In this document: positions 12 through 48,652 of the stretch, in pieces | Numbering within the stretch: the stretch's first letter is position 1 | How the letters are laid out: the number at the start of each line of letters is the position of its first letter | Assembly (NCBI GenBank): GCA_032718475.1 | Contig: JAUCBJ010008622.1 | Location: forward strand, 87,826-151,825 | Origin: Nemertoderma westbladi | Taxonomy: Eukaryota > Animalia > Xenacoelomorpha | Direction: 5' to 3' | DNA length: 64,000 nucleotides | Notes under the pieces: model-generated | Databases searched by the model: none | What the model was told of the DNA's origin: nothing | Seen by the model: only the letters and a program-made list of their open reading frames with translations | Position numbers and translations under genes: made by a program

Positions 12-629
12 TTGGATATTGTCAAAGAAATTTGTTCAAGTTATATACCGAAGCAAAACCTGTCATTAGATGAAGCTTTACTAAAGCACAAGGGACGATT
101 GTCATTCAAGGTTTATATAAAAACTAAACGTGCACGATTTGGTATAAAACTATTCCTTGCTTGTGATTCTAATGGCTATATGGTTGTTGTTCGTGTTTAT
201 TACGGTAAAAAGTGGGAGATTCCTCAGGTGGATGATGGGAAGGAACTTTCTATGAGTGAAAATGTTGTTGCGCTGCTTTTGAAGGAGGTGCACCTTATGG
301 ATCAAGGTTATATTGTCCATGTAGATAATTGGTACACCAGTTTACGGCTAGTACGGTACTTACTAACTCATAGTACAGGTTTGAGGGGCACCATTAGAGT
401 AAACCGGGGAATACCAACTGCACTAAAGAATACCAAACTGACGCCCATCTCCTCTAAGTTTATGAGGAATGAGAGTATACTGGCTGTCAAATACACTGAC
501 AAACGAGATGTCTATATGTTGTCCACCGTTGACAATGCAGGTACTGTAGATAAGACCCGGCATGTTCGTGGTGGTGGCACAGTTGAATATACGAAACCCA
601 TCTGTATTGAGGAGTGTAACCGCAACATG
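12..629 (+). CDS. piggyBac transposase, catalytic core (5' segment)
   Basis: SLDEAL, KRARFGIK, VDNWYTS and DKRDVYMLST motifs; frame is cut at NM by the LTR insertion. Confidence 0.9.
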
Positions 630-1819
630 TGTTCGCGCTTTCAGACCTTTGGCAGTTTAACCCGCCAAATTAGGATGTCTTCTAGATAATAAATCGCTTT
701 AGCCTCTAACAAGTATTTGATTCACTACACTAGTTGAAACCAATCTGTGCGCGATCATTCACCCATTGGATATACCCGGGAGATTGACTTCGACGGCTTA
801 ATCGTATTGCTATGTAAGCCTAATGTATTATTCGACTGACAGTATTATATAATCTCTGACAATATTATTCATCTTCGGGGAATATTAACAGTTCCTTTAG
901 GACGTGGCGCTCTATCTATATAAACAGAGTTATGACTTAAACTACTCACAACGATATGGCTTAGTTACAATTCACATATATGGCGCATTCTTTAGGAAAT
1001 GCTTCGTTATCAGTCTCACTCATACACAATGCTGCACAATACTGCACACTAATCTGCCGATCTTCACTGATTTTAGTCACATATAAAAGGAACACAGACC
1101 GACTCATGTAGGGTCTATCAAATAACATTAGATTCACTTAAAACCACTTTAACATAAGTCGCAATCGTTATATGTAACCTTTCTCTCTTACCTTCGGTAT
1201 ATCAAGAATATTGGGTTTCGGGGTTATTTCTCGTTATTCCAAATATAATAATTCATCAACAAATATAATGAATAACCGACAGCAAAGCAGTAATGTTAAG
1301 TTAAGTTGCACAGTATGGGCCAGTTAACCAGTGTTAAACAGTGCAGATAACATTGAGTTACCCAGATAACGGATATATGTCCTTATAATTAAGCCTACTA
1401 GTGTAAGGCTAAAGCAGAAAAGCACAAAATACTCCAAAGCCGTTCTTCCTTGGCTCAGGACTGAATGATAACACTGCCCATAATGCATTACGTGATTTCT
1501 CGGAAATTTCTGTACAAGAGCCATAAAAATGCTCTGATTGGCTGACTGAACTAAGAGAGAACAAAGAAACAAAGAAATGTTCTACGTGGCAATATCAGCT
1601 GTTAGCCGTCGTCATGGTAGCGACACTGTTTTCAAGAGTATCCAGCTATTGCGTCACGAAATTACGGATTATGTCCTTTAAAGTACACATACAGAAGAAA
1701 TGGCTTTTATGTCCTCTAAAACACCAGTACAGTAAGGACACGGCCGTTTTATGCCTGGTAAACCAACTACAGAGTACTTTACGGGAAAATAACCGGCTAA
1801 TTACGCAAAAGCTTTTACA
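630..1819 (-). repeat. 3' LTR of copy 1
   Basis: Near-identical to 11636-12816 (about 10 substitutions and a 9-bp indel by eye); preceded on the minus strand by purine-rich GGGAGCGG (PPT-like). Confidence 0.92.
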
Positions 1820-4800
1820 CCGCTCCCAGAAAATGGGATTTAAGTCTATAAAATATAACAAATCACAGTTTCTAAAATATAAAGATACTCTAAACAGTTA
1901 GTCTTTCTTACGCAGACGGCGTTTACGCAGTTTTTTGAGGCTAGCAAGAGTCTTTTTCTCTTTGGGGCGAGCCACTTTACTAGGAAGGCTAGAACTCCTG
2001 GGTAAAGGGTGCAATACAATTGCATTAGAAGGTTTGGGTTTACGGTCGGTGTCTCGTCCAGTTCGATATGCTTCTCCTCGAGCTGATTTTCCTCCGCTTG
2101 TCATGGGATACGTTCGTCCAAAACTCTCGCAGAGAATAGGGTTTTCTAAGCTTGATATCTTCTTAGAGATTCGAGATTTCCCAATCGACCTGAGATAAGG
2201 CTAATTCGTTTATCGATTGGACTTACTGTTATAACTTACGTTTATCTGAACAAACGCAGATTTCTTTTTTGATCTTTATAGAATAGCGTTCAACTCGTTT
2301 CGTACAACGCTCTCCTTCACCTTGATGAAGGGTTGTATCGCGTTAAACGGGGACGACCATACGGTTGGATAGTGATATTAGGTGTCCGCGTCACAATCCG
2401 GCTAGGTAAGATTGGCGGCTAGCTACAAATCACTGTCGGAGTGTTACCGATTAATTGTTAGGGTAGCACTAGATCTTTGAACAGTGAATACAGTCCGCGA
2501 GGATCCGCGACACCACCAGGATCGCAGGTCTGAGGTCCAACTAAGGAATGAGGAGGTTTGACCGAGTATTCCGGGACTCTGATCGTAGGTTTACTCCAGG
2601 ATCGTTCGAGCCGAGTGAGCATAGGTGATACGTCAAACAAGTTTCGCTCGAAACTCCAGTAAATATAACGAACACAACTGTGTTTAACACAACGTTTCCG
2701 TGGATGTTTATGTCTTTCCGTTTATTGGCTGGGTCTAGGGCATTTATCGTAATAATACCAAAGACGCACGTCTTGAAGGGGAAACGCGGGTGATATTTAT
2801 TTGTTGTTACAATGCTTCTATCAAGAATTCCAAATATATGTTGGAGTTACCGCGTTTATTTGTTTCTTTAATGTCTTTTCTTTCGAGTCGATTTCGAATA
2901 GGATTTTCGCATTAGAAATTTGGTTTATCGTTTCGACTCCTCTGGGTATGATATGTTCGACATAGTCCGTATCGTGTAAATTGATAGAATGGCCAATGGT
3001 TAAGAAGTCCATATACATACCATTACAATGCGTGTAGCGAGCGGTGAATTTTCCATAGTCCAATTCACGCGTAAGTTACTTCCAGGAAATCGTAGGTTCG
3101 ATATAACGACCATCATCCTTCGTAGTAGTTGGACTAGTATCACCGCGTATCAAGCTATCAACAAACGTTTGAAAGTAGAGTATATCGCTCCCCGATACCA
3201 AGACCATCTTCTATCAACTCAATCATATCTGCTATATGAGTTTATCCATATTATAATGAGTTTATATTTAGGCGAGCGGGCGTCGCTGCCTACCCCAATC
3301 AGCCCCCGGACAGTGCGAGATCCTCAGCACCGATGTGTCGTCGCCGCTGTACTTTCGCCAACGACGTAGCCGCACAACGACAACGACAACCGGCACAAGT
3401 CACTTGACTGTCCGTCCCAAAGGCTTAGATACACCTCAGGTTCTTACTGGAGAGTTAGGGTTACTTTCACAATTGCGACTCGCTACTGTAAACACACCTT
3501 AGTAGTAACATTCGCCTATAAACTCACAAATACCACACACACAACTTGTCACAAATTACACACACTCGGGCCATTTGTCCGTTAGTCAATGCCTTCCAGA
3601 ATGTCACTGTATTATTATGTATCCTTGGATACTAGCAGTGCGCTATTTATTCCCTATGCTATTCAATGGGACAAGCTTTCTATTGTTCTTTTAACTCAAT
3701 TCTAATTCTAGCGTGGTTGTTGCTATGGTGACATTATGCAAAACTAGCGGTAGAATTAGAGTAATTCCAATGCATACAGATCTGGGATGTTATTTAATAG
3801 TAATTCTTTAATGATCAATGTTCTGTTTTATACATGACTTTATGAATTTTATCGGCTATTGACTATGTTTGGGAGACTTTCGCACACTCATACGCATGAT
3901 AAGATAAATCTCCGCTCCCGTGATCTATTAATTAATGGAATTTTGGGAATGTTATAAATTGCGTAAAAATGGCAATTTATTAAATTCATTAAAAGGCATG
4001 AATTTAAATTTATTCCCTGAAATTTTATTATTTGATAATTAAATTGACATATTTTGATTCTAGAACATGTCTGGGGACACAAGATCCTTAATTCTATGAA
4101 AATTGTCCTTTTAAGAATATCGGTAAATGCTACGATATCTTAATTGACTAGAATTGTTGAAGGATCTGAATTTTACAGATTTTGATTTATTAGATTTGCA
4201 AATATTAAATAATTAATATTTGAGATGGGCACCGATTTATTCCAGAACTTTTCTGGGGACGTTAACCACTGATTCTAGAATTTGTCTTTCAAGTATATCG
4301 GTGGGTGCCGCGATATCTTAATCGACTAGAATTGCAGATGGTCAAAGGGTTTAACAGATTTATTTTGCGTTATACTCTACTGTTAAAGGGACATCACGCT
4401 ACTATATGTATTATTTAATATACGGTATGAGAGCAATATCGCACGAAGCAATGTCAGTGTGAAGAGGCAAGTCGTTTCCAAGGTCTACCCAGAGCTTGGT
4501 TTAGCCGAGACACGAGGATCTGAACTTTGCATTCCTAATACTCTGCCTACCAATAATACTTGAATATAGTAGTGGCTTTATTGTACTTTGATAAGTACGG
4601 ACATTTCATCTTACTGTAGTTACGTATTTGTAATGTAATACGGACAGTAAGGAAAGAGAAAAAATAATTATTTCTCGCCGTTGCACTAAATATATTATAA
4701 GTAATTACGTACGTAATAAACACTAATATATTGCACTAATCTACTAAATAATCTCTAAAATACCATACTACTAAATAAAATTAAATAAAACGATTAAAAT

Positions 4801-4882: not shown

Positions 4883-7800
4883 TTACGTTATGGAGTCCCT
4901 AGATGTTTGAAGGATTAGGGAGGTGGTCGTGGGAAGAGAATCTTGCCTTCCACAGTTTCCGGAGAGTCCTCCATTCCCTTCCGGTAAACACAAACGACCG
5001 ACTGGGTGATTGAGTCGCTGCATCCCGAATACAATTCCAGGTTTCCTCTTCGTCCTGGAATAGTGACGATAGAAACATCGCTCTAGGTACACGACGGCCT
5101 TACAAAGCCGATTCCAGGAGCTATAGTGGTCCGTCGCTCCCTGCAGGAGAGGTGAGAGTCCCTGCGAGACGTCTGATGTTCCAGAGCTCTCTCTGGTCTT
5201 CATGAAGGATCCACTCGCGGTGGGGAGGTCCAGATCCACGGCGTCGTCCCTGGCAATATGTAATACCGACAGATCTATCCCGGGTTCAAATAACTCCGCT
5301 CCACCCGTCCGGGTTTTAGGTTTAACTTTCTCCGCTCCCTTGGCTGGTCTAATCTCAGTCGGAGTAAGATGGGGAGGCCATTCATCCTCCTTACTCAGGA
5401 AGTCGGGTTCACCTAACCGGTCTGTAGTATCTGTCAGTTCTTGAGGAGTTGCTCCTCTGGAAGCGATGTCAGTTGGATTAAACTTCTTGGGGCAATATCT
5501 CCATTGATCTACATTGGAGCTAAGATTGTCATTATCTGAGGAGTGTGGTGTTCCCTCAGTTGGGTCGTCTCCCTTACTAGTATCATCTTCCCATTCACTC
5601 ACCTGGCGGACGCGATCTTGAAGCAGTCTTTCTCTGAGCGTTCTTCGGGAAGGTCCAGTAAGGTACCAACCTACTCTAGTTCTTACCGCATAGGTCTGAA
5701 GTGGTTGCGGTTGAGCAGGTCGTTTCTCCAATGTCTCCAGCGCCTCATGCGCGTTTTGACCAATTAATATTTGTACTCCAGGATAATCGGTGTCGAATCT
5801 AGGGATGTTAAGTTGTTGGGCATGATCATCTTCGTCCCAATTATAAGGTTCCACTTGGGTGGTAGCGAAGTTCTTTATTGCCACCATTTTGACTGACCTT
5901 ATACTGTATTCTCCTAGTTTATCCTGTGGAGTGGACAACTCACCTATATAATAGTCGGCAGCCACAGCAGGTTTCCAAACCTGCATGATCCCTGACATGT
6001 TTAGCTTGGTTCGGAACTTGGGTTGTCCAGCAAAGATGTCTTCGGCTAGTTCTTTATCGATGAATGTTCCTGTGCTACCGGAGTCCAGGAGGGCGTTCAC
6101 TATATAGCTCTTCTGAGGTCCGTGGACCCGTAACTGGACGACAGGAAATTCTCGGATTCCTATATTGGAAGTTGGCGTTTTCCAAGATGGTTGTTGATCA
6201 GAAGTAGTTAAGGTAAGGTCGCTGTCTGTGTCTTTCTCATGCACGAGTGCTCGATACACTGCGGTGGTGTTTATTAGGTAACAGGATTCGTTTTGGTCGG
6301 AGAACTCGTCCGTATAGAATCCTTCCATCTCAGATTGATCAGTGTCGTTCACATCACTGAATTGGACATGTAGTTCGGACTCACTTACCTGACTCGGACT
6401 ATTTCGTTCGAATTCCGTGTGCAACAAGATATGATGTTTTGCGCCGCACTTTGCACACCTTGCGTCGGAGTAACAGGTTCGCCGTTGGTGTCCTCGTCTG
6501 AGGCAATTATAACACAACCGCTTATCCCACATGACTTCACGTCTATCCTTTAGTGATTTCCTCAGGAATTTAACACACGCATTTAAACGGTGGGGCCCGT
6601 CGCACAGCACACATTTCGGCTTGATGTTACTTACTTTAACCTGTGCTATGTGGTGCACACTTGTTCTTTCCTCGGGCTTTCTCACCTGAATTCTCTTGGG
6701 AGACGTAAGAGGAGTTTTTCTTACCTGTTCTCTCTTATCATTGGATCGAGACTTAAATTTACTTCCCTGTTCGTTAGGTGTTTTATGGCTATCATAAGAT
6801 CTTTCAGTGTCTTTTCCGCTGTCCTCTCCTTGAGAAGTCTGGCTTTCGCCATCGTCGGTATAACACACTGGCGTTACCTTTCTCCTGGAGACGGGTTTCT
6901 CACTTACCTTGTTTTCCGATGTCTTCTCTCTGGACTGCTTTATGAGCTGTAATTTCACTTCGCCATCCAAGAATGTCATGAGATCAGTCATGGTAGGGTC
7001 TCGTTGTTGTTGTTCCATCATGTATAACACCTTTTTGTCCCAGCGTGTACCTACTCCACCCTTCGGTAAAGTAGAAGCCACTGCTCTAATAACCATAGCA
7101 CTCTGATACTCATGAGACTTACCTAGCCAATCTAATTGTCTGCAGATCTCCTGAATTTCATCGGAAAACTCTATAATCCCGCTGCTAATAAACTTTCGGG
7201 GCGCTACCAACTTTGCATACAAATACCCAGCTATGTTATTCCTATTACCATACCTGATGTTTAGTGTATCCCAAACTTGTCTTAATCCGTCTGGATGTCC
7301 AATAAACCTTAACGCCATTAACTTGGGAGGTCCTTCCAAGCACTCGATGAGGAATCTAAGTTTCTCTCCATTAGATAGCACAGAGTTCTGTATGTTATCT
7401 TTGTAATATTCATTAAAAGGTAACCATTTCATCTCATCTCCATTGAACTTGACGATCTCTCCAACCTTTACCGCTTGTCGGGCTTCGGTTCTAGCCATTT
7501 GGCGTGTAAAACTTTCTTGAGCCATCGTATTATTGAATAGAGAATTATCGGTATATAAGTTTCTCGGATTATTATCAAGTCTAGATGAGATATCATTATC
7601 AACAGGTTTATAATTACCCTTAATAGGGTTTACTATAGGAGTTTCTACTTCGCTAGCAGTATAGATGCGTGTAGGCTCCACACCTTGCGCATGGGATACT
7701 TCAGACCTAACGGGTTGACACATTGTTACAGGGGGTGGTGGTATACCCTTTTGTGTGTTCACTAATTTATCGCGTTCTAGCGCGATACTTTGCTGCACTT

Positions 7801-9412
7801 CTTGCAACTCTAGTCTACTTTCCCTTACTGTGCCCTTGAATTGCTGAACAGTCTCCTGCATCTGCCCGAGCAGGAGATCCATCCCCGTCTCTCGTCCACC
7901 CATTCGACCGCCGAAGCGGGAGTCGCCAACGTTGTAGCGGGCGGACGAGGGACAACGGGCGACAAATCATGAATATTTCGCTCGGGGTCCAGGACCTGAA
8001 CTGTCTCCTGGGCAGTTCTACTGGGCACAGGTAGCTTAGTGCTGTGCAGAGGGAATTTAGAGGTAGCTTCAGGGAGCACAGGTGTGTCTATCACCGAAGG
8101 GGTGATTTCAAGAACAGGCCTAATTATTTCAGGCTCATCTACTATAGTAGGGAGTCTTTCTATTTTAATTATTTGGTCTGTGGGTTCTGTACTACCTAAG
8201 TTAGTGCTATTTAGTTGCCTTCTAACAGCTGGAGGCAAATCAGGCAATTTCTGACGGTGGGATGTTCTTTTACGTCTACTTAGACGAGATCTATTTCCTT
8301 TGCCTTCATTATCGGTGGTATCGCCTTCCTCAGATGATGTATATCCCTGTCTTTTGGGAGTAGATCGATTCATCATCTGCATATTACTAGCTACTAACTG
8401 TTTATTTATGCAGTCTTGATTCTCCTGAATGTTTTCCAATTCTAATTGGGTGATTTCTTCCGCCGCTCTACGTTCTGCTTCTGCCACTGCCACATCCGCC
8501 TTTCTTTTCATTTCTGCTGCCTTTCTTTTCGCTTCTGCCTCTGCCGCTGCCACTGCCACATCCGCCTTTCTTTTCATTTCTGCTGCCTTTCTTTTCGCTT
8601 CTGCCTCTGCCGCTGCCGCTGCCGCTGCCGCTGCCACTGCCGCTGCCGCTGCCGCTGCCGCTGCCGCTGCCGCTGCCGCTGCCGCTGCCGCTTTCCTTTC
8701 CATTTCGTCAAATTTACTTTCCTCTTCGGCTGCTTTCCTTTCCGCTTCGGCAGCTGCTACTGCTGCTTTCTTTCTGTCTTCTATACGTTTTTTCTTTACT
8801 TGGTTATTTAGCTTGGTTCGCCGCTAACATTTCCGCATCGATTGCGTCCAGCACAAGCTTGGTTCCTTCACTATTAGGGCTAAGCCCCTCCAGCCTTCTC
8901 CTCAACTCGTCATCACCTAAAAAACGTTGATAGTCTGACAGATAGATGTCAATGGCATCTCTCTTTCGAGGCCCCTCCGCTGTCCCTTCGATTTCTTCTT
9001 GAGAAGAAGTGGTGTCGGTTGATTCTTCATAGGTTGGCCGTTCATTATAAACCGTATCCGCCATCTTCGCTCCGCGTTCGGGCGTCCGCTCAACAGTATC
9101 CGAACTACTGGAGCTCTCGGGCCGCTGAGAACTAGGTTCTTGGCTAGGAGGTTGCTGCTGTTTGGCAGCTGCTTCTTGATCCCGCTTAACTTGGGCCCGA
9201 GTACCGATGATAGACCTACGGCGCTTCACTAACTTCGCGAATTGCGAAATTGCTTCTACTAACCTAGGTTCTGACACAGCTACTGTAGGGGTTGTCTTTC
9301 TTACAGTAGGAGGGGTTTCAGACCTCGGTCTGGGATTCTCTATACTCCTATCTGATAAACAGACTGTTGTTTCTAGGAGACTATCTGACAGAGTTTGCCT
9401 TGTGTCAGACAT
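4883..9412 (-). pseudogene. BEL/Pao gag-protease polyprotein, frameshifted into three ORFs
   Basis: ORFs 8804-9412, 7825-8703 and 4883-7903 are collinear with the single frame 38420-42814; KFNGDEMKW...KLRFL capsid-like region, CVLC/CYNC/CAKC knuckles, DSG protease. Confidence 0.88.
8608..8692. repeat. (GCCGCT)n microsatellite encoding poly-Ala in gag
   Basis: Visible hexamer run; much shorter in copy 2. Confidence 0.9.
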
Positions 9413-10739
9413 GTTTGTTTGTACAGTTGGATGCCTACTGCTATATTACAGCCTAAGCAAGTCTAGTAATTCAATATTAACTGTTAGCCTAGTAATTAAT
9501 TATCGATACTGCTACTCAGTGTAGCGTGATATATATATAATATATTAGAATATCGGTATGCTTATAGTATATATAAGTATTATTACGGACTAGGTTTATC
9601 ACAGAATACCGGTATAATTTTAGCACAAATATATATAAATATATAATAGGCCTATCGGGAATACCGGTATACAGCTTACAGTTTGTAGCATATATAAGTA
9701 TAATTCTGGACTAGAATTAATTATAAAGTACCGGTATAATTTCAGCCTAAATTTATAGAAATAAAGATAATAGGCCTATCGTAAATACTGGTATATCAAT
9801 TATTTTAAATAATTGAATTTCTGAACTTTAGGGTTACTTGGTTACTTTACTTACTTTATTACCGCTATTTGAGCAGTAGTCCAACTGATATTGAGACCTA
9901 ATGGTTGTGTGGTAGGCCTACTATTTATAAATCGTTAGATTTGATTTATAATATATATATACCCGTTTTAATGGGTTTTGTCAATGTTTGAAATAAATGT
10001 TATTATTTCTGGGGAGTAATCACTACACAAAGCGGTGCGCTTTCAGTGAAGTGTTACTTATAGGACACTTAAACAAATAATGCTAATTTACCTAAGTTAC
10101 TTAATACTACAAATTACGTACAATTCGGGTGAGATTACAATCTCTAAATAAACACAAAAATTTACAAAAAACACAAATACGAATTTTTAGGGTAATTTTA
10201 CAAGAAGTCTACAAACCAGCCTAACAAAGGGTTAGAAATCTGGTTATTACAACGGACAGGGTACTACGGTATTTGAAAATAATAAGTAGTAGTAAATACA
10301 CTGCGTTGTCCAGATAGGAAAATACCACCGCCTGACGACCTATAGCCGTATCGCTATAGGTTCTACGTTATGTATGACGGAGTGTTCCTACCTAGAAGTT
10401 AATAGAGCTAATCGAACGTGCCTATCAACCACTTTACAACACAAATATAATGCCTACACTAATTACTTTCGGAAAGCACTGTACACTAAACCCTAAATTA
10501 GGTACGAGTACTTGTACAACAGATAATCAGTAGTTAAATATACTTGAACAACTAAAAGAACCACGGCATCTGCTGGAGTGACCGGTGCACAAAATCACCA
10601 GTCTTTACCTACGCCAAGCAGCCCGTGTAGTACTGGGGTTAGTTTAACTATAACGGTATGTATAACAAACACAATTACTGTAGGAACAAACTTGGGGAAT
10701 GAATGTTGCGAATAATCGCATAAACTCTGAATAATAAAT

Positions 10740-11310: not shown

Positions 11311-11623
11311 AATCTGATCAGGCTTACACGCCTTCTGTTCAATACTGGCCTACAAACAAATAAAACTGACAGAAATAGGCCTAAGTAAAATCCCAATAAA
11401 AACCAGGCGTCCCCGATTAATTATTAAGACCTACTGGTATATAATAATCAAAATCGAATAATACTGCTGTACCTATACGGGAAGTACCGGTTAGGACAGT
11501 TGGGCCTACAGACCTACAGAAGTACCGGTTCTGGCAGTTGGGCCTACTGACCTACAGATGTACCGTTCAGGTTTACCGGTTGACCGGTACTTTCAACTTT
11601 ATTGCTTACTTCAATAAAGAAGC

Positions 11624-11635
11624 TATATCCGTTAT
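11624..11635 (-). promoter_or_regulatory. Putative self-priming primer-binding site ATAACGGATATA
   Basis: Directly follows the 5' LTR, has no TGG, and is the exact reverse complement of an LTR-internal 12-mer at 12363-12374. Confidence 0.6.
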
Positions 11636-12816
11636 TGTTCGCGCTTTCAGACCTTTGGCAGTTTAACCCGCCAAATTAGGATGTCTTCTAGATAATAAAT
11701 CGCTTTAGCCTCTAACAAGTATTTGATTCACTACACTAGTTGAAACCAATCTGTGCGCGATCATTCACCCGTTGGATATACCCGGGAGATTGACTTCGAC
11801 GGCTTAATCGTATTGCTATGTAAGCCTAATGTATTATTCGACTGACAGTATTATATAATCTCTGACAATATTATTCACCTTCGGGGAATATTAACAGTTC
11901 CTTTAGGACGTGGCGCTCTATCTATATAAACAGAGTTATGACTTAAACTACTCACAACGATATGGCTTAGTTACAATTCACATATATGGCGCATTCTTTA
12001 GGAAATGCTTCGTTATCAGTCTCACTCATACACAATGCTGCACAATACTGCACACTAATCTGCCGATCTTCACTGATTTTATTCACATATAAAAGGAACA
12101 CAGACCGACTCATGTAGGGTCTATCAAATAACATTAGATTCACTTCAAACCACTTTAACATAAGTCGCAATCGTTATATGTAACCTTTCTCTCTTACCTT
12201 CGGAATATTGGGTTTCGGGGTTATTTCTTGTTATTCCAAATATAATAATTCATCAACAAATATAATGAATAACCGACAGCAAAGCAGTAATGTTAAGTTA
12301 AGTTGCACAGTATGGGCCAGTTAACCAGTGTTAACCAGTGCAGATAACATTGAGTTACCCAGATAACGGATATATGTCCTTATAATTAAGCCTACTAGTG
12401 TAAGGCTAAAGCAGAAAAGCACAAAATACTCCAAAGCCGTTCTTCCTTGGCTCAGGACTGAATGATAACACTGCCCATAATGCATTACGTGATTTCTCGG
12501 AAATTTTTGTACAAGAGCCATAAAAATGCTCTGATTGGCTGACTGAACTAAGAGAGAACAAAGAAACAAAGAAATGTTCTACGTGGCAATATCAGCTGTT
12601 AGCCGTCGTCATGGTAGCGACACTGTTTTCAAGAGTATCCAGCTATTGCGTCACGAAATTACGGATTATGTCCTTTAAAGTACACATACAGAAGAAATGG
12701 CTTTTATGTCCTCTAAAACACTAGTACAGTAAGGACACGGCCTTTTTATGCCTGGTAAACCAACTACAGAGTACTTTACGGGAAAATAACCGGCTAATTT
12801 CGCAAAAGCTTTTACA
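11636..12816 (-). repeat. 5' LTR of copy 1
   Basis: TGTAAAAG...GCGAACA on the minus strand; direct repeat of 630-1819. Confidence 0.92.
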
Positions 12817-12818
12817 AC

Positions 12819-13265
12819 ATGGGTGGAGTTGATCGTCAAGACCAATATATATCTGCATACAACCCTCTTAGAAAGAGCCATATCTGGTTCAAGAAGGTAG
12901 GCTTCAATATAATAATGCGTCTGCTGGTGAATGCATTTATTATCTATAAACAGGAGAAGAACTCAAAGGCCCGACTCCTAGACTTCATAAAAACGACTGT
13001 GATTTGGTTGACTGATATGCCGACCACTTCGAAAGGGAAATCTGGCGCATCCGCTATCCAGCCCATTCAACCTGCCCAACTTCATACTCTTGTTCCGCAT
13101 CCACCTACACCTAAAAAGAATAGACCAACCTATCGGTGTCGTGTGTGCTATTCCAATAGCAAGAAACGCAAAGAAACTCGATACTACTGTCCACAATGTG
13201 CTACAAAGCCAGCACTTTGTCTGGGTGGGTGTGCAGCGAAGTGGCACGAGTCAGTTTCCCAATAA
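12819..13265 (+). CDS. piggyBac transposase, C-terminal segment with Cys-rich domain
   Basis: MGGVDRQDQ (third catalytic Asp), WFKKV, CRVC...TRYYCPQC...ALC..GC...WH; joins 12..629 in frame once the insertion and one ACATG are removed. Confidence 0.9.
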   Translation: MGGVDRQDQYISAYNPLRKSHIWFKKVGFNIIMRLLVNAFIIYKQEKNSKARLLDFIKTTVIWLTDMPTTSKGKSGASAIQPIQPAQLHTLVPHPPTPKKNRPTYRCRVCYSNSKKRKETRYYCPQCATKPALCLGGCAAKWHESVSQ

Positions 13266-36060: not shown

Positions 36061-36640
36061 CGGCAATATTTTTACCGGAGCCGGAGCAGGAGCCGGAGGT
36101 GCCAAAATGGCCGGAGCCGGAGCCGGAGGCCGGAGCTCCGATCGATCCCTAAAAGTTACCTTTGCAGCTCTGTCAGTCAGGGAGATCATCAATTTTGGGG
36201 TTACCCCAAATTTCGAATTCTGGTAATAGACTGTCGAAAATTGGGGTTTTTTGTTCAAATTTGAGGTATTTTTAGGCTCATAATATCGAGTGTTGCTGCG
36301 ACTTAGGGAAACTATTGGAGCAACTTCTACTTTTAATATGTTAAAATATAATGTAAAATAAGAACTTTTATCGATGCAATAAAATATTTCACCGATGCAA
36401 ACATGCTTTTATTGGGGGCGAAAATTGAAATTTGAGGTTAAACCTCAAATTTGAGACAAAACCTCAAATTTCGCCAGCCTTTACAACATCACCAGCCTGT
36501 CAGCAGTAGGGTGTTGCAGTAGGCTTTGCTGCTTAGTGCTTATAGAGCTTGGTGAGAATGGGTGACCAGTGTAACCTGTGACATGACATGTATGCAGGGT
36601 AGGGCTCGATCGGAGCTCCGGCCTCCGGCCTCCGGCTTCG
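36061..36640. mobile_element. Two termini of another hAT-like MITE family
   Basis: ...CCGGAGCTCCGATCGATCCCTA ending at 36151 and TAGGGCTCGATCGGAGCTCCGG starting at 36600. Confidence 0.5.
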
Positions 36641-38419
36641 TTTGGTCTGTACTTTGTTTGTGTAAGTCTGTACGGGTAGCGTATAATTTTATTTAGATAA
36701 TTTGTAGGCTGGATAGTTGTCTGGCTGTTATTAGGTCTGAACGGATTGCCGCGTGTGTAGATCATCTGTCCGATTAAGTACGGTTAGGCAGTAGGGGCAG
36801 CGAACGCTGTAAGGTAAACCCCCAACTAAAGAATAAGTCGCACTACTGGGTTAGAGCGCATACTCCCTAATCATTTCGGAGTCTGCATATACCGTAGTTT
36901 GTTTAGGCTTGATAGTAGTCTGTCAGTGTTCGGTCTGTATTTTGTTTGAGTAGTTTGTACGCGTAGCGTAATATTTATTATTCAGAGTTTATGCGATTAT
37001 CCGCAACATTCATTCCCTAAGTTTGTTCCTACAGTAATTGTGTTTGTTATACATACCGCTATAGTTAAATTAACCCCGGTACTACACGGGCTGCTCGGCG
37101 TAGGTAAAGACTGGTGATTTTGTGCATCGGTCACTCCAGCAGATGCCGTGGTTCTTTTAGCTGTTCAAGTATATTTAACTACTGATTATCTGTTGTACAA
37201 GTACTCGTACCTAATTTAGGGTTTAGTGTACAGTACTTTCCGAAGTAATTAGTGTAGGCATTATATTTGTGTTGTAAAGTGGTTGATAGGCACATTCGAT
37301 TAGCTCTATTAACTTCTAGGTAGGAACACTCCGTGATACATAACGTAGAACCTATAGCGATACGGCTATAGGTCGTCAGGCGGTGGTATTTTTCTATCTG
37401 GACAACGCAGTGTATTTACTACTACTTATTATTTTCAAATACCGCAGTACCCTGTCCGTTGTAATAACCAGATTTCTAACCCTTTGATTAGGCTGGTTTG
37501 TAGACTTCTTGTAAAATTACCCTGAAAATTCGTATTTTGTGTTTTTTGTAAATTTTTGTGTTTATTTAGAGATTATAATCTCACCCGAATTGTACGTAAT
37601 TTGTAGTATTAAGTTAAGTAACTTAGGTAAATTAGCATTATTTGTTTTAGTGTCCTATAAGTAACACTTCACTGAAAGCGCACCGCTTTGTGTAGTGATT
37701 ACTCCCCAGAAATAATAACATTTATTTCAAACATTGACAAAAACCCATTTCAACGGGTATATATATATTATAAATCAACTCAAACAATTTATAAATAGTA
37801 GGCCTGCCATACAACAATTAGGTCTCAATATCAGTTGGACTACTGCTTAAATAACGGTAATAAAGTAAGTTAAAGTAACCAAGTAACCCTTAAAATTCAG
37901 AAATTCAATTATTTAAAATAATTGATATACCGGTATTTACGATAGGCCTATTATCTTTATTTCTATAAATTTCGGCTGAAATTATACCAGTACTTGTAAT
38001 TAATTCTAGCCCAGAATTATATATACTACAAACTGTAAGCTGTATACCGGTATTCCCGATAGGCCTATTATATATATATAAATTTAGGCTGAAATTATAC
38101 CGGTACTCTGTAATTAATTCTAGTCCAGAATTATACTTATATATACTATACTATAAGTGTAAGCTGTATACCGGTATTCCCGATAGGCCTATTATATATT
38201 TATATATTTGTGCTAAAATTATACCGGTATTCTGTGATAAACCTAGTCTGTAATAATACTTATATATACTATAAGCATACCGGTATTCTAATATTATATA
38301 TATCATGCTACACTGAGTAGCAGTATCGGTAATTAATTACTAGGCTAGCCGTTAATGCTGAATTACTAGACTTGCTTAGACTGTAATATAGCAGTAGGCA
38401 TTGAACTGTACAATCAAAC

Positions 38420-41400
38420 ATGTCTGACTCACAACAAACATTGTCAGATAGTCTTTTAGAGGGTGTTAGAATGAGTATTAGACTTAGACAGCGTCTTAAA
38501 AGGATCTGTGACCAAGATCAAAGTATGGAACATCCCAGACCAAAGTCTAAGTCCCCTCCTACTGTGCGAAAGATCATCCCTCAAGTAGTCCCCTCAGACC
38601 CTAGGCTAGTCCAACATCGTAGGTCTATCATAGGCACTCGAGCTCAGGTCAAGCGGGACCAAGAAGCAGCGGAACCTCAACAACCCGCGAGCCAAGAACT
38701 TACTTCTCAACGGCCCGATAGCTCCAGTAGTTCGGATACTGTTGAGCGGACGCCCGAACGCGGAGCGAAGATGGCGGATAAGGTTTATGATGAGCGGCCA
38801 ACCTATGAAGAATCAACCGACGCCACTTCTTCTCAAGAAGAAAGCGAAGTGACAGCAGAGAAACCGCATAAGAGGGATGCTATTGACATCTATCTGTCAG
38901 ACTATCAACGCTTTGTAGGAGATGAAGAGTTGAGGAGAAGGCTGGAGGGGCTTAGTAGTGAAGGAACCAAGCTTGTGCTGGACGCAATCGATGCGGAAAT
39001 GTTAGCTGCGAACCAAGCTAAATTTGATGAACTCCTCCGCATCACTAGAGACCAAGAAGAACAAGTAAAGAAAAAACGTATAGAAGACAGAAAGAAAGCA
39101 GCAGTGGTAGCTGCAGAAGCAGAAAGAAAAGCGGCAGCGGCAGAGGCAGCGGCAGAGGCAAAGGCGGCCGAGGCTGAAAGAAAGGCAGCAGAGGCAGTGG
39201 CAGAAGCCGAACGGAGAGCAACTGAAGAAACCACCCAATTAGAATTGGAAAACATTCAGGAGAATCAAGACTGCATAAATAAACAGTTAACAGCTAGTAA
39301 TATGCAGATGATGAATCGATCTACTCCCAAAAGACAGGGATATACATCATCTGAGGAAGGCGATACCACCGATACTGAAGGCAAAGGAAATAGATCTCGT
39401 CTAAGCAGACGTAGAAGAACATCCCACCGTCAGAAATTGCCTGATTTGCCTCCAGCTGTTAGAAGGCAACTAAATAACACCAACTTAGGTAGTACAGAAC
39501 CCACAGACCAAATAATTAAAATAGAAAGACTCCCTACTATAGTAGATGAGCCTGAAATAATTAGGCCTGTTCTTGAAATCACCCCTTCGGTGATAGACAC
39601 ACCTCTGCTCCCTGAAGTTACCTCTAAATTCCCTCTGCACAGCACTAAGCTACCTGTGCCCAGTAGAACAGCCCATGAGGCAGTTCAGGTCCTGGACCCC
39701 GAGCGAAATATTCCTGATTTGTCGCCCGTTGTCCCTCGTCCGCCCGCTACAACGTTGGCGACTCCCGCTTCGGCGGTCGAATGGGTGGATGAGAGACGGT
39801 GGGGGATGGATCTCCTGCTCGGGCAGATGCAGGAGACCGTTCAGCAATTCAAGGGCACAGTAAGGGAAAGTAGGTTAGAGTTGCAAAAGGTGCAGCAAAG
39901 TATCGCGTTAGAACGCGATAAATTAGTGAACACACAAAAGGGTATACCACCACCCCCTGTAACAATATGTCAACCCGTTAGGTCTGAAGTATCCCATGCG
40001 CAAGGTGTGGAGCCTACACGCATCTATACTGCTAGCGAAGTAGAAACTCCTATAGTAAACCCTATTAAGGGTAATTATAAACCTGTTGATAATGACATTC
40101 CCTATAGACCTGATCATAATCCGAGAAATTTATATACCGATAACTCGATATTAAATAACACGATGGCCCAAGAAAGTTTTACACGACATATGGCTAGAAC
40201 CGAAGCCCGGCAAGCGGTAAAGGTTGGAGAGATCGTCAAGTTTAATGGAGATGAGATGAAATGGTTACCTTTTAATGAATATTATAAAGATAACATACAG
40301 GACTCTGTGCTATCCAACGGAGAGAAACTTAGATTTCTCATCGAGTGCTTGGAAGGACCTCCCAAGTCAATGGCGTTAAAGTTTATTGGACATCCAGATG
40401 GATTAAGACAAGTTTGGGACACACTAAACATCAGGTATGGTAATAGGAATAACATAGCTGGGTATTTGTATGCAAAGTTGGTAGCGCCCCGAAAGTTTAT
40501 TAGCAGCGGGATTATAGAGTTTTCCGATGAAATTCAGGAGATCTGCAGACAATTAGATTGGCTAGGTAAGTCTCATGAGTATCAGAGTGCTATGGTTATT
40601 AGAGCAGTGGCTTCTACTTTACCGAAGGGTGGAGTAGGTACACGCTAGGACAAGAAAGTGTTATACATGATGGAACAACAACAACGAGACCCTACCATGA
40701 CTGATCTCATGACATTCTTGGATGGCGAAGTGAAATTACAGCTCATAAAGCAGTCCAGAGAGAAGACATCGGAAAACAAGGTAAGTGAGAAACCCGTCTC
40801 CAGGAGAAAGGTAACACCAGTGTGTTATACCGACGATGGCGAAAGCCAGACTTCTCAAGGAGAGGACAGCGGAAAAGACACTGAAAGATCTTATGATGGC
40901 CATAAAACACCTAACGAACAGGGAAGTAAATTTAAGTCTCGATCCAATGACAAGAGAGAACAGGTAAGAAAAACTCCTCTTACGTCTCCCAAGAGAATTC
41001 AGGTGAGAAAGCCCGAAGAAAGAACGAGAGTGCACAATGTTACCCAAAATAAGGTAAGTAACATCAAACCGAAATGTGCGCTGTGTAACGGGACCCACCG
41101 TTTGAATATGTGTGATGAATTCCTGAAGAAATCATTAACGGAGAGACGAGAAGTCATGTGGGATAAGCGGTTATGTTATAATTGCCTCAGACAAGGACAC
41201 CAACGGCGAACCTGCTACTCTGACATAAGGTGTGCAAAGTGTGGTGCGAAACATCATATCTTGTTGCACACTGAATTCGAACGAAGCAGCCCGAGTCAGG
41301 TAAGTGAGTCCGAACAACTACATGTCCAATTCAGTGATGTGAACGACACTGATCAATCTGAGATGGAAGGATTCTATACGGACGAGTTCTCCGACGAAAA

Positions 41401-42814
41401 CGAATCCTGTTACATGATAAATACTGCAGTGTATCGAGCACTCAGATATGAAAAAGATACGGACAGCGACCTCACTCTAACTACTTCTGATCGACAACCA
41501 TCTTGGAAAGCGCCAACTTCCAATATAGGAATCCGAGAATTTCCTGTAGTCCAGTTACGGGTCCACGGACCTCAGAAGAGCTATATAGTGAACGCCCTCC
41601 TGGACTCCGGTAGCACAGGAACATTCATCGATAAAGAACTAGCCGAAGTCATCTTTGCTGGACAACCCAAGTTCCGAACCAAGCTAAACATGTCAGGGAT
41701 CATGCAGGTTTGGAATTCTACTGTAGCTGCCGACTATTATATAGGTGAGTTGTCCACTCCACAGGATAAACTAGGAGAATACAGTATAAGGTCAGTCAAA
41801 ATGGTGGCAATAAAGAACTTCGCTACCACCCAAGTGGAACCTTATAATTGGGACGAAGATGATCATGCCCAACAACTTAACATCCCTAGATTCGACACCG
41901 ATTATCCTGGAGTACAAATATTAATCGGTCAAAACGCGCATGAGGCGCTGGAGACATTGGAGAAACGACCTGCTCAACCGCAACCGCTTCAGACCTATGC
42001 GGTAAGAACTAGAGTAGGTTGGTACCTTACTGGACCTTCCCGAAGAACGCTCAGAGAAAGACTGCTTCAAGATCGCGTCTGCCAGGTGAGTGAATGGGAA
42101 GACGATACTAGTGAGGGAGACGACCCAACTGAGGGAACACCACACTCCTCAGATAATGACAATCTTAACTCCAATGTAGATCAATGGAGATATTGCCCCA
42201 AGACGATGAATATAGCCGACATCGCTTCCAGAGGAGCAACTCCTCAAGAACTGACAGATACTCCAGACCGGCTAGGTGAACCCGACTTCCTGAGTAAGGA
42301 GGATGAATGGCCTCCCCATCTTACTCCTACTGAGATTAGACCAGCCAAGGGAGCGGAGAGAGTCAAACCTAAAACCCGGACGGGTGGATCGGAGTTATTT
42401 GAACCCGGGATAGATCTGTCGGTATTACATATTGCCAGGGACGACGCCGTGGATCTGGACCTCCCCACCGCGAGTGGATCCTTCATGAAGATCAGAGGGA
42501 GCGATTGGAGCTCTGGAACATCAGACGTCTCGCAGGGACTCTTACCTCTCCTGCAGGGAGCGACGGACCACTATAGCTCCTGGAATCGGCTTTGTAACGC
42601 CGTCATATACTTTGAGCGATGTTTCTATCGTCACTATTCCAGGACGAAGAGGAAACCTGGAATTGTATTCGGGATGCAGCGACTCAATCACCCAGTCGGT
42701 CGTTTGTGTTTACCGGAAGGGAATGGAGGACTCTCCGGAAACTGTGGAAGGCAAGATTCTCTTCCCACGACCACCTCCCTAATCCTTCAAACATCTAGGG
42801 ACTCCATAACGTAA
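38420..42814 (+). pseudogene. BEL/Pao gag-protease polyprotein (1464 codons, one internal TAG at 40646)
   Basis: ORFs 38420-40648 and 40658-42814 are in one frame; copy 1 has Trp at the stop position. Confidence 0.9.
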
Positions 42815-44484
42815 CAACATATGGAGTGGGTGTGTGACTCTATTATTTTATATTATTTTATTATTTTTATATTTCTGTATGTATTACTATGTAATTTTAT
42901 TATAATCGTTTTATTTAATTTAGTAGAATATTATTTAGCGATTATTTAGTAGAATAGTGCAATATATTCGTGTTTATTGCGTACGTAATTACTTATATTA
43001 TATTTAGTGCGACGGCAAGAAATAATTATTTTCCTCTTTCCTTACTGTCCGTATTATATTATAAATACGTAACTACAGTAAGATGACATATCCGTACTTA
43101 TTAAAGTACAATAAAGCCACTACTATATTCAAGTATTATTGGTAGGCAGAGTATTAGGAATGCAAAGTTCAGATCCTCGTGTCTCGGCTAAACCAAGCTC
43201 TGGGTAGACCTTGGAAACGACTTGCCTCTTCACACTGACATTGCTTCGTGCGATATTGCTCTCATACCGTATATTAAATAATACATATAGTAGCGTGATG
43301 TCCCTTTAACAGTAGCGTATAACGCAAAATAAATCTGTTAAACCCTTTGACCATCTGTAATTCTAGTCGATTAAGATATCGCGGCACCCACCGATATACT
43401 TGAAAGACAAATTCTAGAATCAGTGGTTAACGTCCCCAGACAAGTTCTGGAATAAATCGGTGCCCATCTCAAATATTAATTATTTAATATTTGCAAATCT
43501 AATAAATCAAAATCTGTAAAATTCAGATCCTTCAACAATTCTAGTCAATTAAGATATCGTAGCATTTACCGATATTCTTAAAAAGACAATTGTCATAGAA
43601 TTAAGGATCTTGTGTCCCCAGACATGTTCTAGAATCAAAATATGTCAATTTAATTATCAAATAATAAAATTTCAGGGAATAAATTTAAATTCATGCCTTT
43701 TAATGAATTTAATAAATTGCCATTTTTACGCAATTTATAACATTCCCAAAATTCCATTAATTAATAGATCAAGGGAGCGGAGATTTATCTTATTATGCGT
43801 ATGAGTGTGCGAAAGTCTCCCAAACATAGTCAATAGCCGATAAAATTCATAAAGTCATGTATAAAACAGGACATTGACCATTAAAGAATTACTATTAAAT
43901 AACATCCCAGATCTGTATGCATTGGAATTACCCTAATTCTACCGCTAGCTTTGCATAATGTCACCATGGCAACAACCACGCTAGAATTAGAATTGAGTTA
44001 AAAGAACAATAGAAAGCTTGTCCATTGAATAGCATAGGGAATAAATAGCGCACTGCTAGTATCCAAGGATACATAATAATACAGTGACATTCTGGAAGGC
44101 ATTGACTAACGGACAAATGGCCCGAGTGTGTGTAATTTGTGACAAGTTGTGTGTGTGGTATTTGTGAGTTTATAGGCGAATGTTACTACTAAGGTGTGTT
44201 TACAGTAGCGAGTCGCAATTGTGAAAGTAACCCTAACTCTCCAATAAGAACCTGAAGTATATCTAAGCCTTTGGGACGGACGGTGGAGTGGCTCGTGCTG
44301 GTTGTTGTAGTCGTTGTGCAGCTACGACGTTGGCGATAGGCACATCGGCGAAAGGACACCAGCGCTGAGGATCTCGCACTGTCCGGGGGCAGAGAGGGGT
44401 AGGCAGCGACGCCCGCTCGCCTAAATATAAACTCATTATAATATGGATAAACTCATATAGCAGATATGGTTGAGTTGATAGAAG

Positions 44485-44871
44485 ATGATCTTGGTATCAG
44501 GGAGATATACTCTACCTTTACAAGCGTTTGTTGATAGCTTAATACGCGGCGATGCTGGTCCAACTGCTGCGGAGGACGACGGTCGTTATATCGAACCGCC
44601 AATGTCCCAAGAGCAGCTCGCGCGCGAGTTGGACTATAGAAAATTCGCCGCTCGATATACGCAGCGTAATGGTACATATATGGACCTCTTAACTACTGGA
44701 CATTCTATCGATTTACACGATACGGACTATGTCGAACATATCCTACCCAGAGGAGTCGAAACGATAAACCAAAATTCTAATGCGAAAATCCTATTCGAAA
44801 TCGACTCGAAAGAAAAGACATTAAAGAAACAAATAAACGCGGTAACTCCAACATATATTTGGAATTCTTGA
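44485..44871 (+). CDS. Unknown ORF in the 3' internal region of the BEL/Pao derivative
   Basis: 128 aa; homologue at about 2821-3207 (-) with one stop; no recognisable domain. Confidence 0.3.
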   Translation: MILVSGRYTLPLQAFVDSLIRGDAGPTAAEDDGRYIEPPMSQEQLARELDYRKFAARYTQRNGTYMDLLTTGHSIDLHDTDYVEHILPRGVETINQNSNAKILFEIDSKEKTLKKQINAVTPTYIWNS

Positions 44872-45872
44872 TAGAAGCATTGTAACAACAAATAAATATC
44901 ATCCGCATTTCCCCTACCAGACGTGCGTCTTTGGTATTATTACGATAAATGCCCTAGACCCAGCCAGTGGACGGAAAGACATAAACATCCACGGAAACGT
45001 TGTGTTAAACACAGTTGTGCTCGTTATATTTACTGGAGTTTCGAGCGAAACTTGTTTGACGTATCACCTATGCTCACTCGGCTCGAACGATCCTGGAGTA
45101 AACCTACGATCAGAGTCCCGGAATAATCGGTCAAACCTCCTCATTCCTTAGTTGGACCTCAGACCTGCGATCCTGGTGGTGTCGCGGATCCTCGCGGACT
45201 GTATTCACTGTTCAAAGATCTAGTGCTACCCTAACAATTAATCGGTAACACTCCGACAGTGATTTCTAGCTAGCCGCCCATCTTACCTAGCCGGATTGTG
45301 ATGCGGACACCTAATATCACTATCCAACCGTATGGTCGTTCCCGTTTAACGCGATACAACCCTTCATCAAGGTGAAGGAGAGCGTTGTACGAAACGAGTT
45401 AAACGCTATTCTATAAAGATCAAAAAAGAAACCTGCGTTTGTTCAGATAAACGTAAGTTATAACAGTAAGTCCAATCGATAAACGAATTGGCCTTATCTC
45501 AGTTCGATTGGGAAATCTCGAATCTCTAAGAAGATATCAAGCTTAGAAAACCCTATTCTCTGCGAGAGTTTTGGACGAACGTATCCCATGACAAGCGGAG
45601 GAAAATCAGCTCGAGGAGAAGCATATCGAAATGGACGAGATACCGACCGTAAACCCAAACCTTCTAATGCAATTGTATTGCACCCTTTACCCAGGATTTA
45701 TAGCCTTCCTAGTAAAGTGGCTCGCCCCAAAGAGAAAAGGACTCTGGCTAGCCTCGGGAAACTGCGTAAACGCCGTCCGCGCAAAGAAAACTAACTGTTT
45801 AGAGTATCTTTATGTTTTAGAAACTGTGATTTTTATATTTTATAGACTGAAAATCCCATTTTCTGGGAGCGG

Positions 45873-48652
45873 TGTAAAAGCTTTTGCTGAATTGCCCGGT
45901 TATTTTTCCTTATTTTTCCCGTAAAATACTCTGTAGTTGGTTTAACCCTATTAAACCCGGGGGGGGGGGGGTCAATATGACCCCTCCCATGGTTTTTTTA
46001 TTTAATTCAGAAACAAACGCAGTTGGGAATCTGACATTTTATGACTTTTCCTAAAAATCTTTTGTCTTCATGGTAGTGAAAACCGTTTTCAAAAATATTG
46101 GGTACTTTTCGAGTTATAGCACCATTTTTTAACCCTACTTTTGGCACTTTTTTTGAGACGTTTTTTGAAAATTACATTTCATTAAATATGAATTGTAACA
46201 TCTCTATTTTTTATTTACACCGGTTTTTTGGTGTTAGAAATTAGATGGGATTCATATAAATTGATTTAGAAATTTCAAACTTGTTTTTTTCGATGGGTGC
46301 CAAATTTTGGTGCCAGCACCAAATTTTGAAATAAGTCAATTTTGTAAATTGATTGTTTGAAACTTGTTTTTTACGCAATTGGGGTTTTTTGAGGTTCTGG
46401 ATTCGATGAAATATATACGAGTTGAACCAAGCGTATCAAACTTGTATTTTTCGGTGCTGTGTGCTAATTTTGGTGCTAGCACGAAATTTTGAAAATCCAT
46501 TCAATATATAAAATTGCTTGTGACAATTTATTTCTTGCGTTTTAGAGGTTTATGGCTGTTCTGAATTCAATGGAAAATATAATTATCGAACTAGACATCT
46601 CAAACTTGTATTTTTCGGATGTGGGTGCAAAATGTGGTGCTAGCACCAAATTTTGAAAACCATCAAATATATCAATTGATTGTGTCACCTTGTTTCTTGC
46701 GTTATACGGGTTTGTGATGGTTCTGAATTCAATGGAATCATTAAAAATTTCATAAGAGTTCTCAAACTTGTATTTTTCGCCGGTGGGTGAAAATTGTTGT
46801 GCCAGCACCAAATTTTGGAAAATATGCAAATAGATAAGTAGATAGTATCACCTTGTTTCTTGCGTTATACGGGTTTATGAGGGTCCTGAATCCGATGGAA
46901 TCAATAAAAACAGCACTGGACATCGCAAACTTGTACTTTTTGGTGATGGGTACGAAATTTGGTGCTAGCACCAAAATTTGCTAAATTACGCCGAAAAATA
47001 CAAGTAGCAATGATCTGGCATATTAGAAATGTATTCCATTAGAATCAGCGCCCTCGAAAACCTGAAAATGTGAATTTATAGCATCGTATAAGTGAATTAA
47101 AAATTTTGTGTTCTAACTGAAAAGTGCTGGTTACTTGTTTTTTTCATTTTTTTCCTACGCAGAGAGGACTAAACAGCCATTTATAGTAATCATATCATTT
47201 TTAAATATTTTCCAATGTATTTTGCACCCCAAAAAACCTGTATTGAAAAATAATTAGCCGAAAATGTAACTTTCAAATTTTGTGAAAATTGTGCACTACT
47301 TGTAATTTTGGTGCTGCAATATAACCACCCCAGTACATTTTTTCGAAAATTTCTTTTTTCGGTCGGATCCAGACAAGTGATACCTACGTACAAACAAAAA
47401 ATCAGACGTTTTCGTAAATATTTGTAGATTTTAGAGGGGGGGGGTCAATATGACCCTCTCCCGGTATTTGTACAACATTTTATAGCCCGGTACTAATAGG
47501 GTTAATAGGCGTAAGAGGCCGTGTTATTGCTGTATCGGTGTTTTTAGAGGATCTAAGAGCTATTTCTTCCGTGTGTGTACTGTGGAAGGCATAGTTGATG
47601 ATTCTATGGCAATTCCGTGACGCAAAAGAGGCGAGATACTCTTGAACAGTAGTTACTATGACGACGGTTAACAGCTGATATTCCTACGTGTCGATTTTCT
47701 TTGTTCTACGTCTACGGCATCTCTCAGTTCAGTCAACCAATCAGAGCGTTTTTACTGTTCTTGTACAGAAATTTCCTAGAAATCACGCAATGCTTTATGG
47801 GCAGTGTTATCATTCTGTCCTGAGCCAGGAAGAACGGCTTTGGAATATTTTGTGCTGTTCTGCTTTTAGCCTAACACTAATAAGGACATATATCCGTTAT
47901 CTGAATCACTGTGCAACTCAATACTTGCCTACTAACCTAACTCAACTGGGCAATGCATATATCTTGTTGCACATACCTTTATATTGTTATACTGCTATTT
48001 ACTGTCGATTATTCATTATATGGTGATAAATATTATATTGGAATAACGAGAAATAACCCCGAAAACCCAATATTCTTGATATACCGAAGGTAAGAGAGAA
48101 AGGTTACATATAACGATTGTGACTTATGTTAAAGTGGTTTGAAGTGAATCTAATGTTATTTGATAGACCCTACATGAGTCGGTCCGTGTTCCTTTTATAT
48201 GTGACTAAAATCAGTGAAGATCGGCAGATCAGTGTGCAGTATTGTGCAGCATTGTGTATGAGTGAGACTGATAACGAAGCATTTCCTAAAGAATGCGCCA
48301 TATATGTGAATTGTAACTAAGCCATATCGTTGCGTGTAGTTTAAGTCATAGCTCTGTTTATATAGATAGAGCGCCACGTCCTAAAGGAACTGTTAATATT
48401 TCCCGAAGGTGAATAATATTGTCAGAGATTATATAATACTGTCGGTCGAATAATACATTAGGCTTACATAGCAATACGATTAAGCTGTCGAAATCAATCT
48501 CCCGGGTATATCCAACGGGTGAATGATCGTGCACAGATTGGTTTCAACTAGTGTAGTGAATCAAATACTTGTCAGAGGCTAAAAGCGATTTATTATCTAG
48601 AAGACATCCTAATTTGGCGGGTTAAACTGCCAAAGGTCTGAAAGCGCGAACA
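45873..48652 (+). repeat. 3' LTR of copy 2, interrupted by a MITE
   Basis: TGTAAAAG after GGGAGCGG; ends GCGAACA; homologous to 630-1819. Confidence 0.88.
45946..47501 (+). mobile_element. Complete ~1.56-kb TTAA-flanked MITE (piggyBac-type CCC..GGG ends)
   Basis: TTAA|CCCTATTA...TAATAGGG|TTAA inserted in the LTR. Confidence 0.85.

Follow-up and report, generated by a model that had tools for sequence, protein, structure and literature searches.

A BEL/Pao LTR retrotransposon on the minus strand of the 64,000-nucleotide window analysed here (contig JAUCBJ010008622.1, Nemertoderma westbladi) has next to its 5' LTR a primer-binding position that begins without TGG and is exactly complementary, over 12 nt, to a motif within its own LTR (Table 1). 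This self-complementary primer site is real and does not result from chance. It suggests that the element probably starts minus-strand DNA synthesis from its own RNA, in the manner of Tf1, and not from a tRNA.

Table 1. Coordinates of the BEL/Pao element, its second copy and their features in the window
Feature	Position	Strand	Basis or remark
Whole BEL/Pao LTR retrotransposon	12816-630	-	5-bp target duplication, LTRs 99% alike
5' LTR, 1181 nt, TG...CA	11636..12816	-	LTR-LTR match
3' LTR, 1190 nt	630..1819	-	12-nt motif at 1377-1366
Target-site duplication CATGT, 5 bp	625..629, partner 12821-12817	-	sequence
Purine-rich tract preceding 3' LTR	1820..1827	-	sequence
Primer-binding position, 12 nt, adjoining 5' LTR, without TGG	11624..11635	-	sequence, shuffles
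Candidate self-primer in LTR	12363..12374 (LTR position 443-454)	-	exact complement of 11635-11624
24-nt block containing the motif, identical in copies 1 and 2	12360..12383	-	alignment
Predicted 77-nt GT-AG intron in LTR	12121..12197	-	good donor, branch-like site, in all three LTR copies
Candidate splice acceptor	11943..11950 (AG ends 11948)	-	in all three LTR copies
Gag-protease region, three overlapping frames	4886..9445	-	frames 9445-8807, 8823-7828, 7966-4886
Copy 2	36638..48652	+	internal identity about 95%, pol deletion shared, lacks 5' LTR and primer site
Copy 2 3' LTR	45873-48652	+	split by 1.56-kb repeat (45942-47505); motif 47889-47900
Matches of the 12-mer	11635-11624, 12374-12363, 1377-1366, 47889-47900		site, 5' LTR, 3' LTR, copy 2 LTR

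The assignment to BEL/Pao, proposed in an earlier note on this DNA, is borne out by a DUF1759 domain (Pfam PF03564, E 4e-11) in the 1027-aa frame 7966-4886, which also carries a Cys-His array and a protease motif, and by blastp matches to BEL/Pao polyproteins (E down to 2e-14 for homologues and 1e-23 for loci). In this frame, the protease motif runs directly into a short C-terminal remnant of RNase H and about 350 residues are absent relative to the homologue P0024. The element 12816-630 lacks reverse transcriptase (RT), integrase and most of RNase H, and blastx of 1820-4900 against 120 BEL/Pao pol homologues gave no match. The element has the LTR traits of Belpaoviridae, being TG...CA ends, a target duplication and a purine tract, and does not show the Pol order RT-RNase H-integrase expected of this family: it is a non-autonomous BEL/Pao derivative, a point that the earlier note had missed. 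It also inserted recently, since its LTRs differ by 10 substitutions in 1181 columns (98.4% match, with one additional 9-nt gap). This recent mobility of an element devoid of a tRNA-type site, attested by the intact target duplication, the near-identical LTRs and the pol deletion found in two copies, argues for self-priming. In both copies, about 3 kb with short decayed frames extend from the truncated pol to the 3' LTR (1820-4880, minus strand, and 42815-45872, plus strand). Pfam gave no match in this 3' internal region, and searches of Rfam and Pfam with LTR/leader and 3' internal fragments returned nothing. An AATAAA at 12083 is private to the 5' LTR 11636-12816, the other copies having ACTAAA.

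The pairing between the primer site and the motif ends exactly at the last LTR base. The earlier note had pointed out this halt at the LTR edge, and the edge is independent of the pairing since it was set by the match between 12816-11636 and 1819-630 and by the CATGT duplication. The absence of a tRNA-type site, also claimed earlier, is confirmed by the lack of any TGG in the first 200 leader bases, where Belpaoviridae are expected to carry a tRNA-complementary primer site. The 12-nt complement is indeed present in both LTRs. When the LTR was shuffled 20,000 times with its dinucleotides preserved, 6 shuffles yielded one as good at offset 0, and 10 yielded at least 12 nt at offsets 0-3. When mock primer sites were placed at internal positions, 2 of 9,786 reached 12 nt, one of them being the real site. 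The threshold taken for a self-primer is a complement of at least 10 nt between the LTR and the site that follows the 5' LTR; here, 12 of 12 bases pair at offset 0. Furthermore, a search of the 64-kb window for the 12-mer with at most one mismatch returned exactly four matches, all perfect, a number reached by none of 100 shuffles. A 22-nt LTR-end pattern had 0 matches in metagenome contigs.

Priming by a host RNA, either an internal tRNA fragment as in the half-tRNA priming that exists in Ty1/copia lineages (excerpts of PMC6317226) or a small RNA, would make the LTR match a by-product or a secondary feature. However, such a primer leaves the 12/12 LTR complement unexplained (p about 3-5 in 10,000), and two different primers would be needed since the two alleles of the site described below differ at two of the five LTR-adjacent bases. 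Moreover, Rfam gave no match in 11300-12900 at E up to 1. We consider this explanation improbable. The 64-kb window contains no tRNA genes.

Copy 2 provides a further view of the motif. The earlier note had reported the 12-mer as intact at 47889-47900; the match is perfect, but it concerns the LTR motif only, and the loss of the primer site from this copy had been overlooked. Since its 5' LTR and primer site are lost, copy 2 bears on motif conservation and not on covariation. The 24-nt block that contains the motif is the longest identical stretch of LTR positions 50-613, and the regions on either side of it are 80% and 61% alike. Over LTR positions 50-560, 42 of 499 12-mers (8%) are likewise identical between the copies. 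The conservation of the motif in copy 2 is modest evidence.

Folding predictions are consistent with a primer-like interaction, depending on where the RNA starts. The duplex of 12363-12374 with 11635-11624 has a predicted energy of -13.3 kcal/mol, and no other segment of the LTR pairs as well as the motif with the first 20 leader bases (-17.7 kcal/mol for the motif versus -11.9 for the next one). For an RNA starting at 12374, both the minimum-energy and the centroid structures have the first 12 bases paired to the site. The mean predicted probability of this pairing is 0.91-0.98 when the start lies between 12420 and 12370, and 0.01-0.17 when it lies at 12440 or farther upstream, because 12425-12415 competes for the LTR end. 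The two helices cross, and the model excludes pseudoknots. A possible 5-bp extension of the helix (12381-12377 with 11621-11617) is disfavoured in full folds, with a pairing probability of at most 0.07. Regarding the 'pretzel' described for Tf1, the central duplex is predicted, while the flanking helices are local or involve other partners, depending on the start.

The position of the transcription start matters accordingly for the pairing. As the earlier note had cautioned, no TATA box lies 25-30 nt upstream of 12374. A TCATTC at 12465, which we take to be initiator-like by its consensus, is preceded by a CCAAT box 73 nt before it, at 12538. A start at 12465, about 90 nt upstream of the motif, would leave the predicted pairing at 0.01-0.14 and would count against self-priming. 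A pyrimidine tract ending in TTTAG (12423-12406, minus strand) lies 31 nt upstream of the motif and is kept in copy 2. No strong donor was seen by eye upstream of it; a splice or trans-splice acceptor at this place would give an RNA whose 5' end favours pairing (0.97 if the start is 12405).

The same folds bear on the view that the pairing is structural, serving to close the leader in packaging, in dimerisation or in the control of translation, and that priming is achieved otherwise. In favour of such a role, the leader is more stably folded overall than its shuffles (z -4.3, 20 shuffles) and alternative helices involve the LTR end. However, the pairing ends at the last LTR base, which is the register of a primer, both here and in a distant locus (L055, see below), and no other primer site is in view. 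A purely structural role has little probability in our opinion.

Self-priming by the element would proceed as follows. The transcript would begin at or just upstream of the motif (about 12420-12374) and its 5' part would fold onto 11635-11624, RT and RNase H being provided in trans by an autonomous relative. RNase H would then cut just after 12363, leaving a free 3'-OH as in Tf1, from which RT would extend into U5. The primer would finally be copied back into the primer site of the progeny; site and motif would thereby stay matched, and the linked two-base change of the second allele would be explained. Of the earlier proposal of self-priming in BEL/Pao, the complementarity and the missing tRNA-type site stand as observations, and the priming itself is probable.

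This second allele, which had also escaped the earlier note, occurs in many copies of the family. Contigs from four of seven listed runs were aligned to 11500-12500 (X1 may be the window's own sample), and variant percentages are shares of summed contig depth rather than copy numbers. The second allele combines 11635 T>A and 11631 G>T, i.e. changes at site bases 1 and 5, and its depth shares at 11635 and 11631 are 66% and 69% in X1 and 53% and 65% in X3, so that the window-type allele represents about one third to one half of the depth in these two runs. In X5, it accounts for 16.6 of 20.1 depth (83%) in one contig, where the two changes are apparently linked; X4 is uninformative at both positions. 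Relative to the LTR motif 12374-12363, the second allele has two mismatches, one of them at the primer 3' end, and keeps 10 of 12 matches. A prediction set beforehand was that self-pairing would entail compensating changes at 12363 and at 12367. Of the 115 variant rows, the 40 listed include none within 12363-12374. This counts weakly against simple covariation, because clipping would remove changes this near to the divergent flank from the variant table. A minor contig form carries G>A at 12368, with which a G-U pair is retained.

The same LTR offers an exact complement of the second allele across a candidate splice joint: 12374-12368 joined to 11947-11943 (7+5 nt), with GT at 12367, AG at 11948 and a span of 420 nt. 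Common variants at 11952 and 11951 raise the pyrimidine content of the 11948 acceptor. This match is only a lead, since an acceptor followed by the five matching bases occurs in 6-12% of shuffles and since the donor at 12367 is weak, with a poor fit to the usual consensus. The predicted 77-nt intron of the LTR was also considered as a primer-builder and was rejected: its joint complements neither allele, and the pairing is unchanged after its removal.

These data also bear on a third alternative, in which the match is due to chance or to a one-off conversion in a defective lineage, the common allele being devoid of self-pairing. The common allele does mismatch the motif with no compensating LTR change among the variants listed, and 8% of the 12-mers in that part of the LTR are as conserved as the motif. 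However, a chance match of this quality has a p of about 3-5 in 10,000, the window-type allele still makes up a large part of the depth in X1 and X3, and the common allele, which retains most of its matches, corresponds to a GT-AG joint within this LTR; in addition, the clipping mentioned above would hide compensating changes. We regard this alternative as unlikely, if slightly less so than the two preceding ones.

The window contains pieces of other BEL/Pao elements. Copy 2 inserted into the pol of another, very divergent BEL/Pao family (48653-53060, plus strand), which encodes an RT fragment, Peptidase_A17, integrase and DUF5641, has best homologues at 33-34% identity and is interrupted by one in-frame stop (49655-49657). 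It is possible that this family is related to the helper. No relatives of this pol were found in viral contigs. Furthermore, 9 bases following a CA at 31359 (31360-31368, plus strand) begin with GT and complement the acceptor-like sequence 31174-31182, 76 of 2,000 shuffles being as good; downstream lies a gag-like frame (31388-32362) with no significant Pfam match. Possibly, 31174-31368 belongs to a second family with a self-pairing site, its LTR end being presumed. A perfect 17-nt inverted match connects the 5' region (31233-31249) of the neighbouring BEL/Pao pieces with their 3' untranslated region (52727-52743) and could be an end-to-end pairing signal. Other features include a 412-bp unit repeated in tandem about 9-10 times, with copies nearly 100% identical (23953-27774), two opposite arrays of a 12-bp unit about 230 bp apart within a nest of inverted-repeat elements (34622-35600), and a LINE-type endonuclease-RT frame (16055-20093, minus strand; 957 aa + 411 aa) flanked by direct repeats (14163-15430 and 20918-22181).

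Self-complementary sites were also found in distant BEL/Pao loci. The neighbouring pol and 35 homologues were aligned, and 78 loci were obtained from a scan of 12 of the 64 parts of a metagenome collection. Twenty of them have a usable LTR-to-gag span, after five near-duplicates and the loci without such a span were left out; nine are of the tRNA type with TGG (L076 being counted as such by its likeness to L072) and 11 have no TGG. With strict splice filters, a splice-joint complement of at least 10 nt was found in 3 of the 11 non-TGG loci versus 2 of 420 cross-pairs. Under a rule that was loosened after the sequences had been viewed, a splice joint in the LTR of the locus itself pairs with the site over 10-13 nt in nine of these 11 loci, compared with 0 of 9 tRNA-type loci and 8 of 110 cross-pairs, a contrast that speaks for self-priming. 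A rule allowing any GT and any AG was dropped, as 24 of 132 cross-pairs (non-TGG set plus window) reached 10. The match of one of the nine loci, L010, is probably due to chance. The other eight (L008, L012, L027, L037, L045, L051, L054 and L055) are like the window element in having no TGG and a 10-13-nt self-complement in the register of a primer. They differ from the window allele in that the latter pairs with an unspliced, contiguous LTR; the second allele of the window family, with its 7+5 nt and GT-AG span, would fit their pattern. Moreover, eight of the nine splice-joint loci begin with GT right after the presumed LTR end, while the window site begins with AT. L055 is the sole locus whose LTR end was set independently, and there also the pairing ends at the last LTR base.

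Several of these loci deserve separate mention. In L008, L051 and L054, the predicted primer-building LTR introns are just 33-38 nt long, with 3 match bases past the joint. The non-TGG locus L031 has a contiguous, window-like 11-nt self-complement one base past the CA of a presumed LTR end. Two related non-TGG loci, L028 (about 120-140) and L038 (about 17-32), have a T-rich stretch and a short palindrome after CA that fit neither a tRNA nor a self-complement in the available DNA. Eleven further contigs are split; among them, L005 shows a comparable 10-nt match, and the match in L014 is doubtful.

A quick tree built on RNase H-integrase from 41 rows has the 15 TGG rows on one side (SH-aLRT 94) and the 25 others on the opposite side (86). 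In two gag-protease trees, the window element joins the TGG side by a long branch, outside the non-TGG group, but its placement inside the non-TGG group is not rejected (p-AU 0.2). As these loci show, self-complementary sites of unrelated letters occur in BEL/Pao elements devoid of tRNA sites, which does not imply that the window element belongs to their group. Its gag-protease placement on the tRNA-type side, the two mismatches of the second allele and the AT instead of GT at the start of the site all count against self-priming.

A broader reading, which we put forward as a speculation with more chances of being wrong than right, is that the family uses two self-made primers from one LTR: the spliced joint (12368 joined to 11947) for the common allele and the unspliced RNA for the window allele, the site being rewritten from whichever primer was used. 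Much of BEL/Pao would then be self-primed as a rule, often with a splice-built primer, and the need for splicing could be lost from a lineage in one step.

BEL/Pao is one of the three large groups of animal LTR retrotransposons. If self-priming is true of the window element, this would be the third superfamily to use it, which bears on whether the mechanism is ancestral or arose repeatedly, and annotation tools that require a tRNA site would miss or mislabel such elements. Should some lineages build their primer by splicing, reverse transcription would be gated by the RNA processing of the host. A family with two alleles of its primer site offers a natural test from sequence data alone. A Cer element of C. 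elegans has reportedly been proposed to bring along a tRNA-like primer of its own.

Among the papers listed by searches of open full texts, none was found to report self-priming in BEL/Pao. Term searches in PMC3601003, PMC3118150, PMC554778, PMC8220671, PMC6238403, PMC6934838 and PMC12451622 gave none, and the main texts of De la Chaux 2011, Copeland 2005 and Thomas-Bulle 2018 do not mention PBS, primer (primer binding for Copeland) or tRNA. The ICTV profile describes Belpaoviridae as tRNA-primed, with an 18-nt site for tRNA-Arg or tRNA-Gly, and calls BEL/Pao replication poorly understood (PMC8742986). The window element shares with these tRNA-primed members a DUF1759 Gag with Cys-His motifs, a protease, TG...CA LTRs, a 5-bp duplication and a purine tract; it differs from them by having no tRNA site and by its deletion, which removed RT, integrase and most of RNase H.

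Tf1 is the established case of self-priming, and the same mechanism is inferred for the Tf1/sushi group (PMC10085805, PMC4600332, PMC5341516 and PMC11042837). Cleavage of the Tf1 mRNA releases the self-primer from its 5' end, and the cDNA receives a copy of the site (PMC10085805, PMC5341516 and PMC11042837). With Tf1/Tf2 of Schizosaccharomyces pombe, Tj1, Tosmo, Tcry and the other Tf1/sushi elements, all Ty3/gypsy chromoviruses, the window element shares a site adjoining the 5' LTR, a complement in the LTR and the absence of a tRNA match. The earlier note had cited a Tf1/Tf2 primer site for comparison; the first five site bases are indeed the same (PMC11042837), but the full site as given there was not found in the papers listed. 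The two flanking 'pretzel' duplexes of Tf1 (from an extract of PMC10085805) are not clearly recovered. Unlike Tf1/sushi elements, which have a Ty3/gypsy chromovirus RT and a chromodomain integrase, the window element has a BEL/Pao-type Gag (DUF1759) and no RT or integrase, an animal host, a 1.2-kb LTR and a non-autonomous structure. The likeness to Tf1 is one of mode of working only and is no evidence of kinship. Self-primers were also predicted for plant Tcn1 (Ty3/gypsy) and TAR/Houba/Osr-1 (Ty1/copia), where a complement of at least 10 bp to the 5' LTR starts 0-5 bp after it (excerpted text of PMC6317226). The site of the window element has such a complement; the plant elements belong to another superfamily and kingdom, and they too are predictions from sequence.
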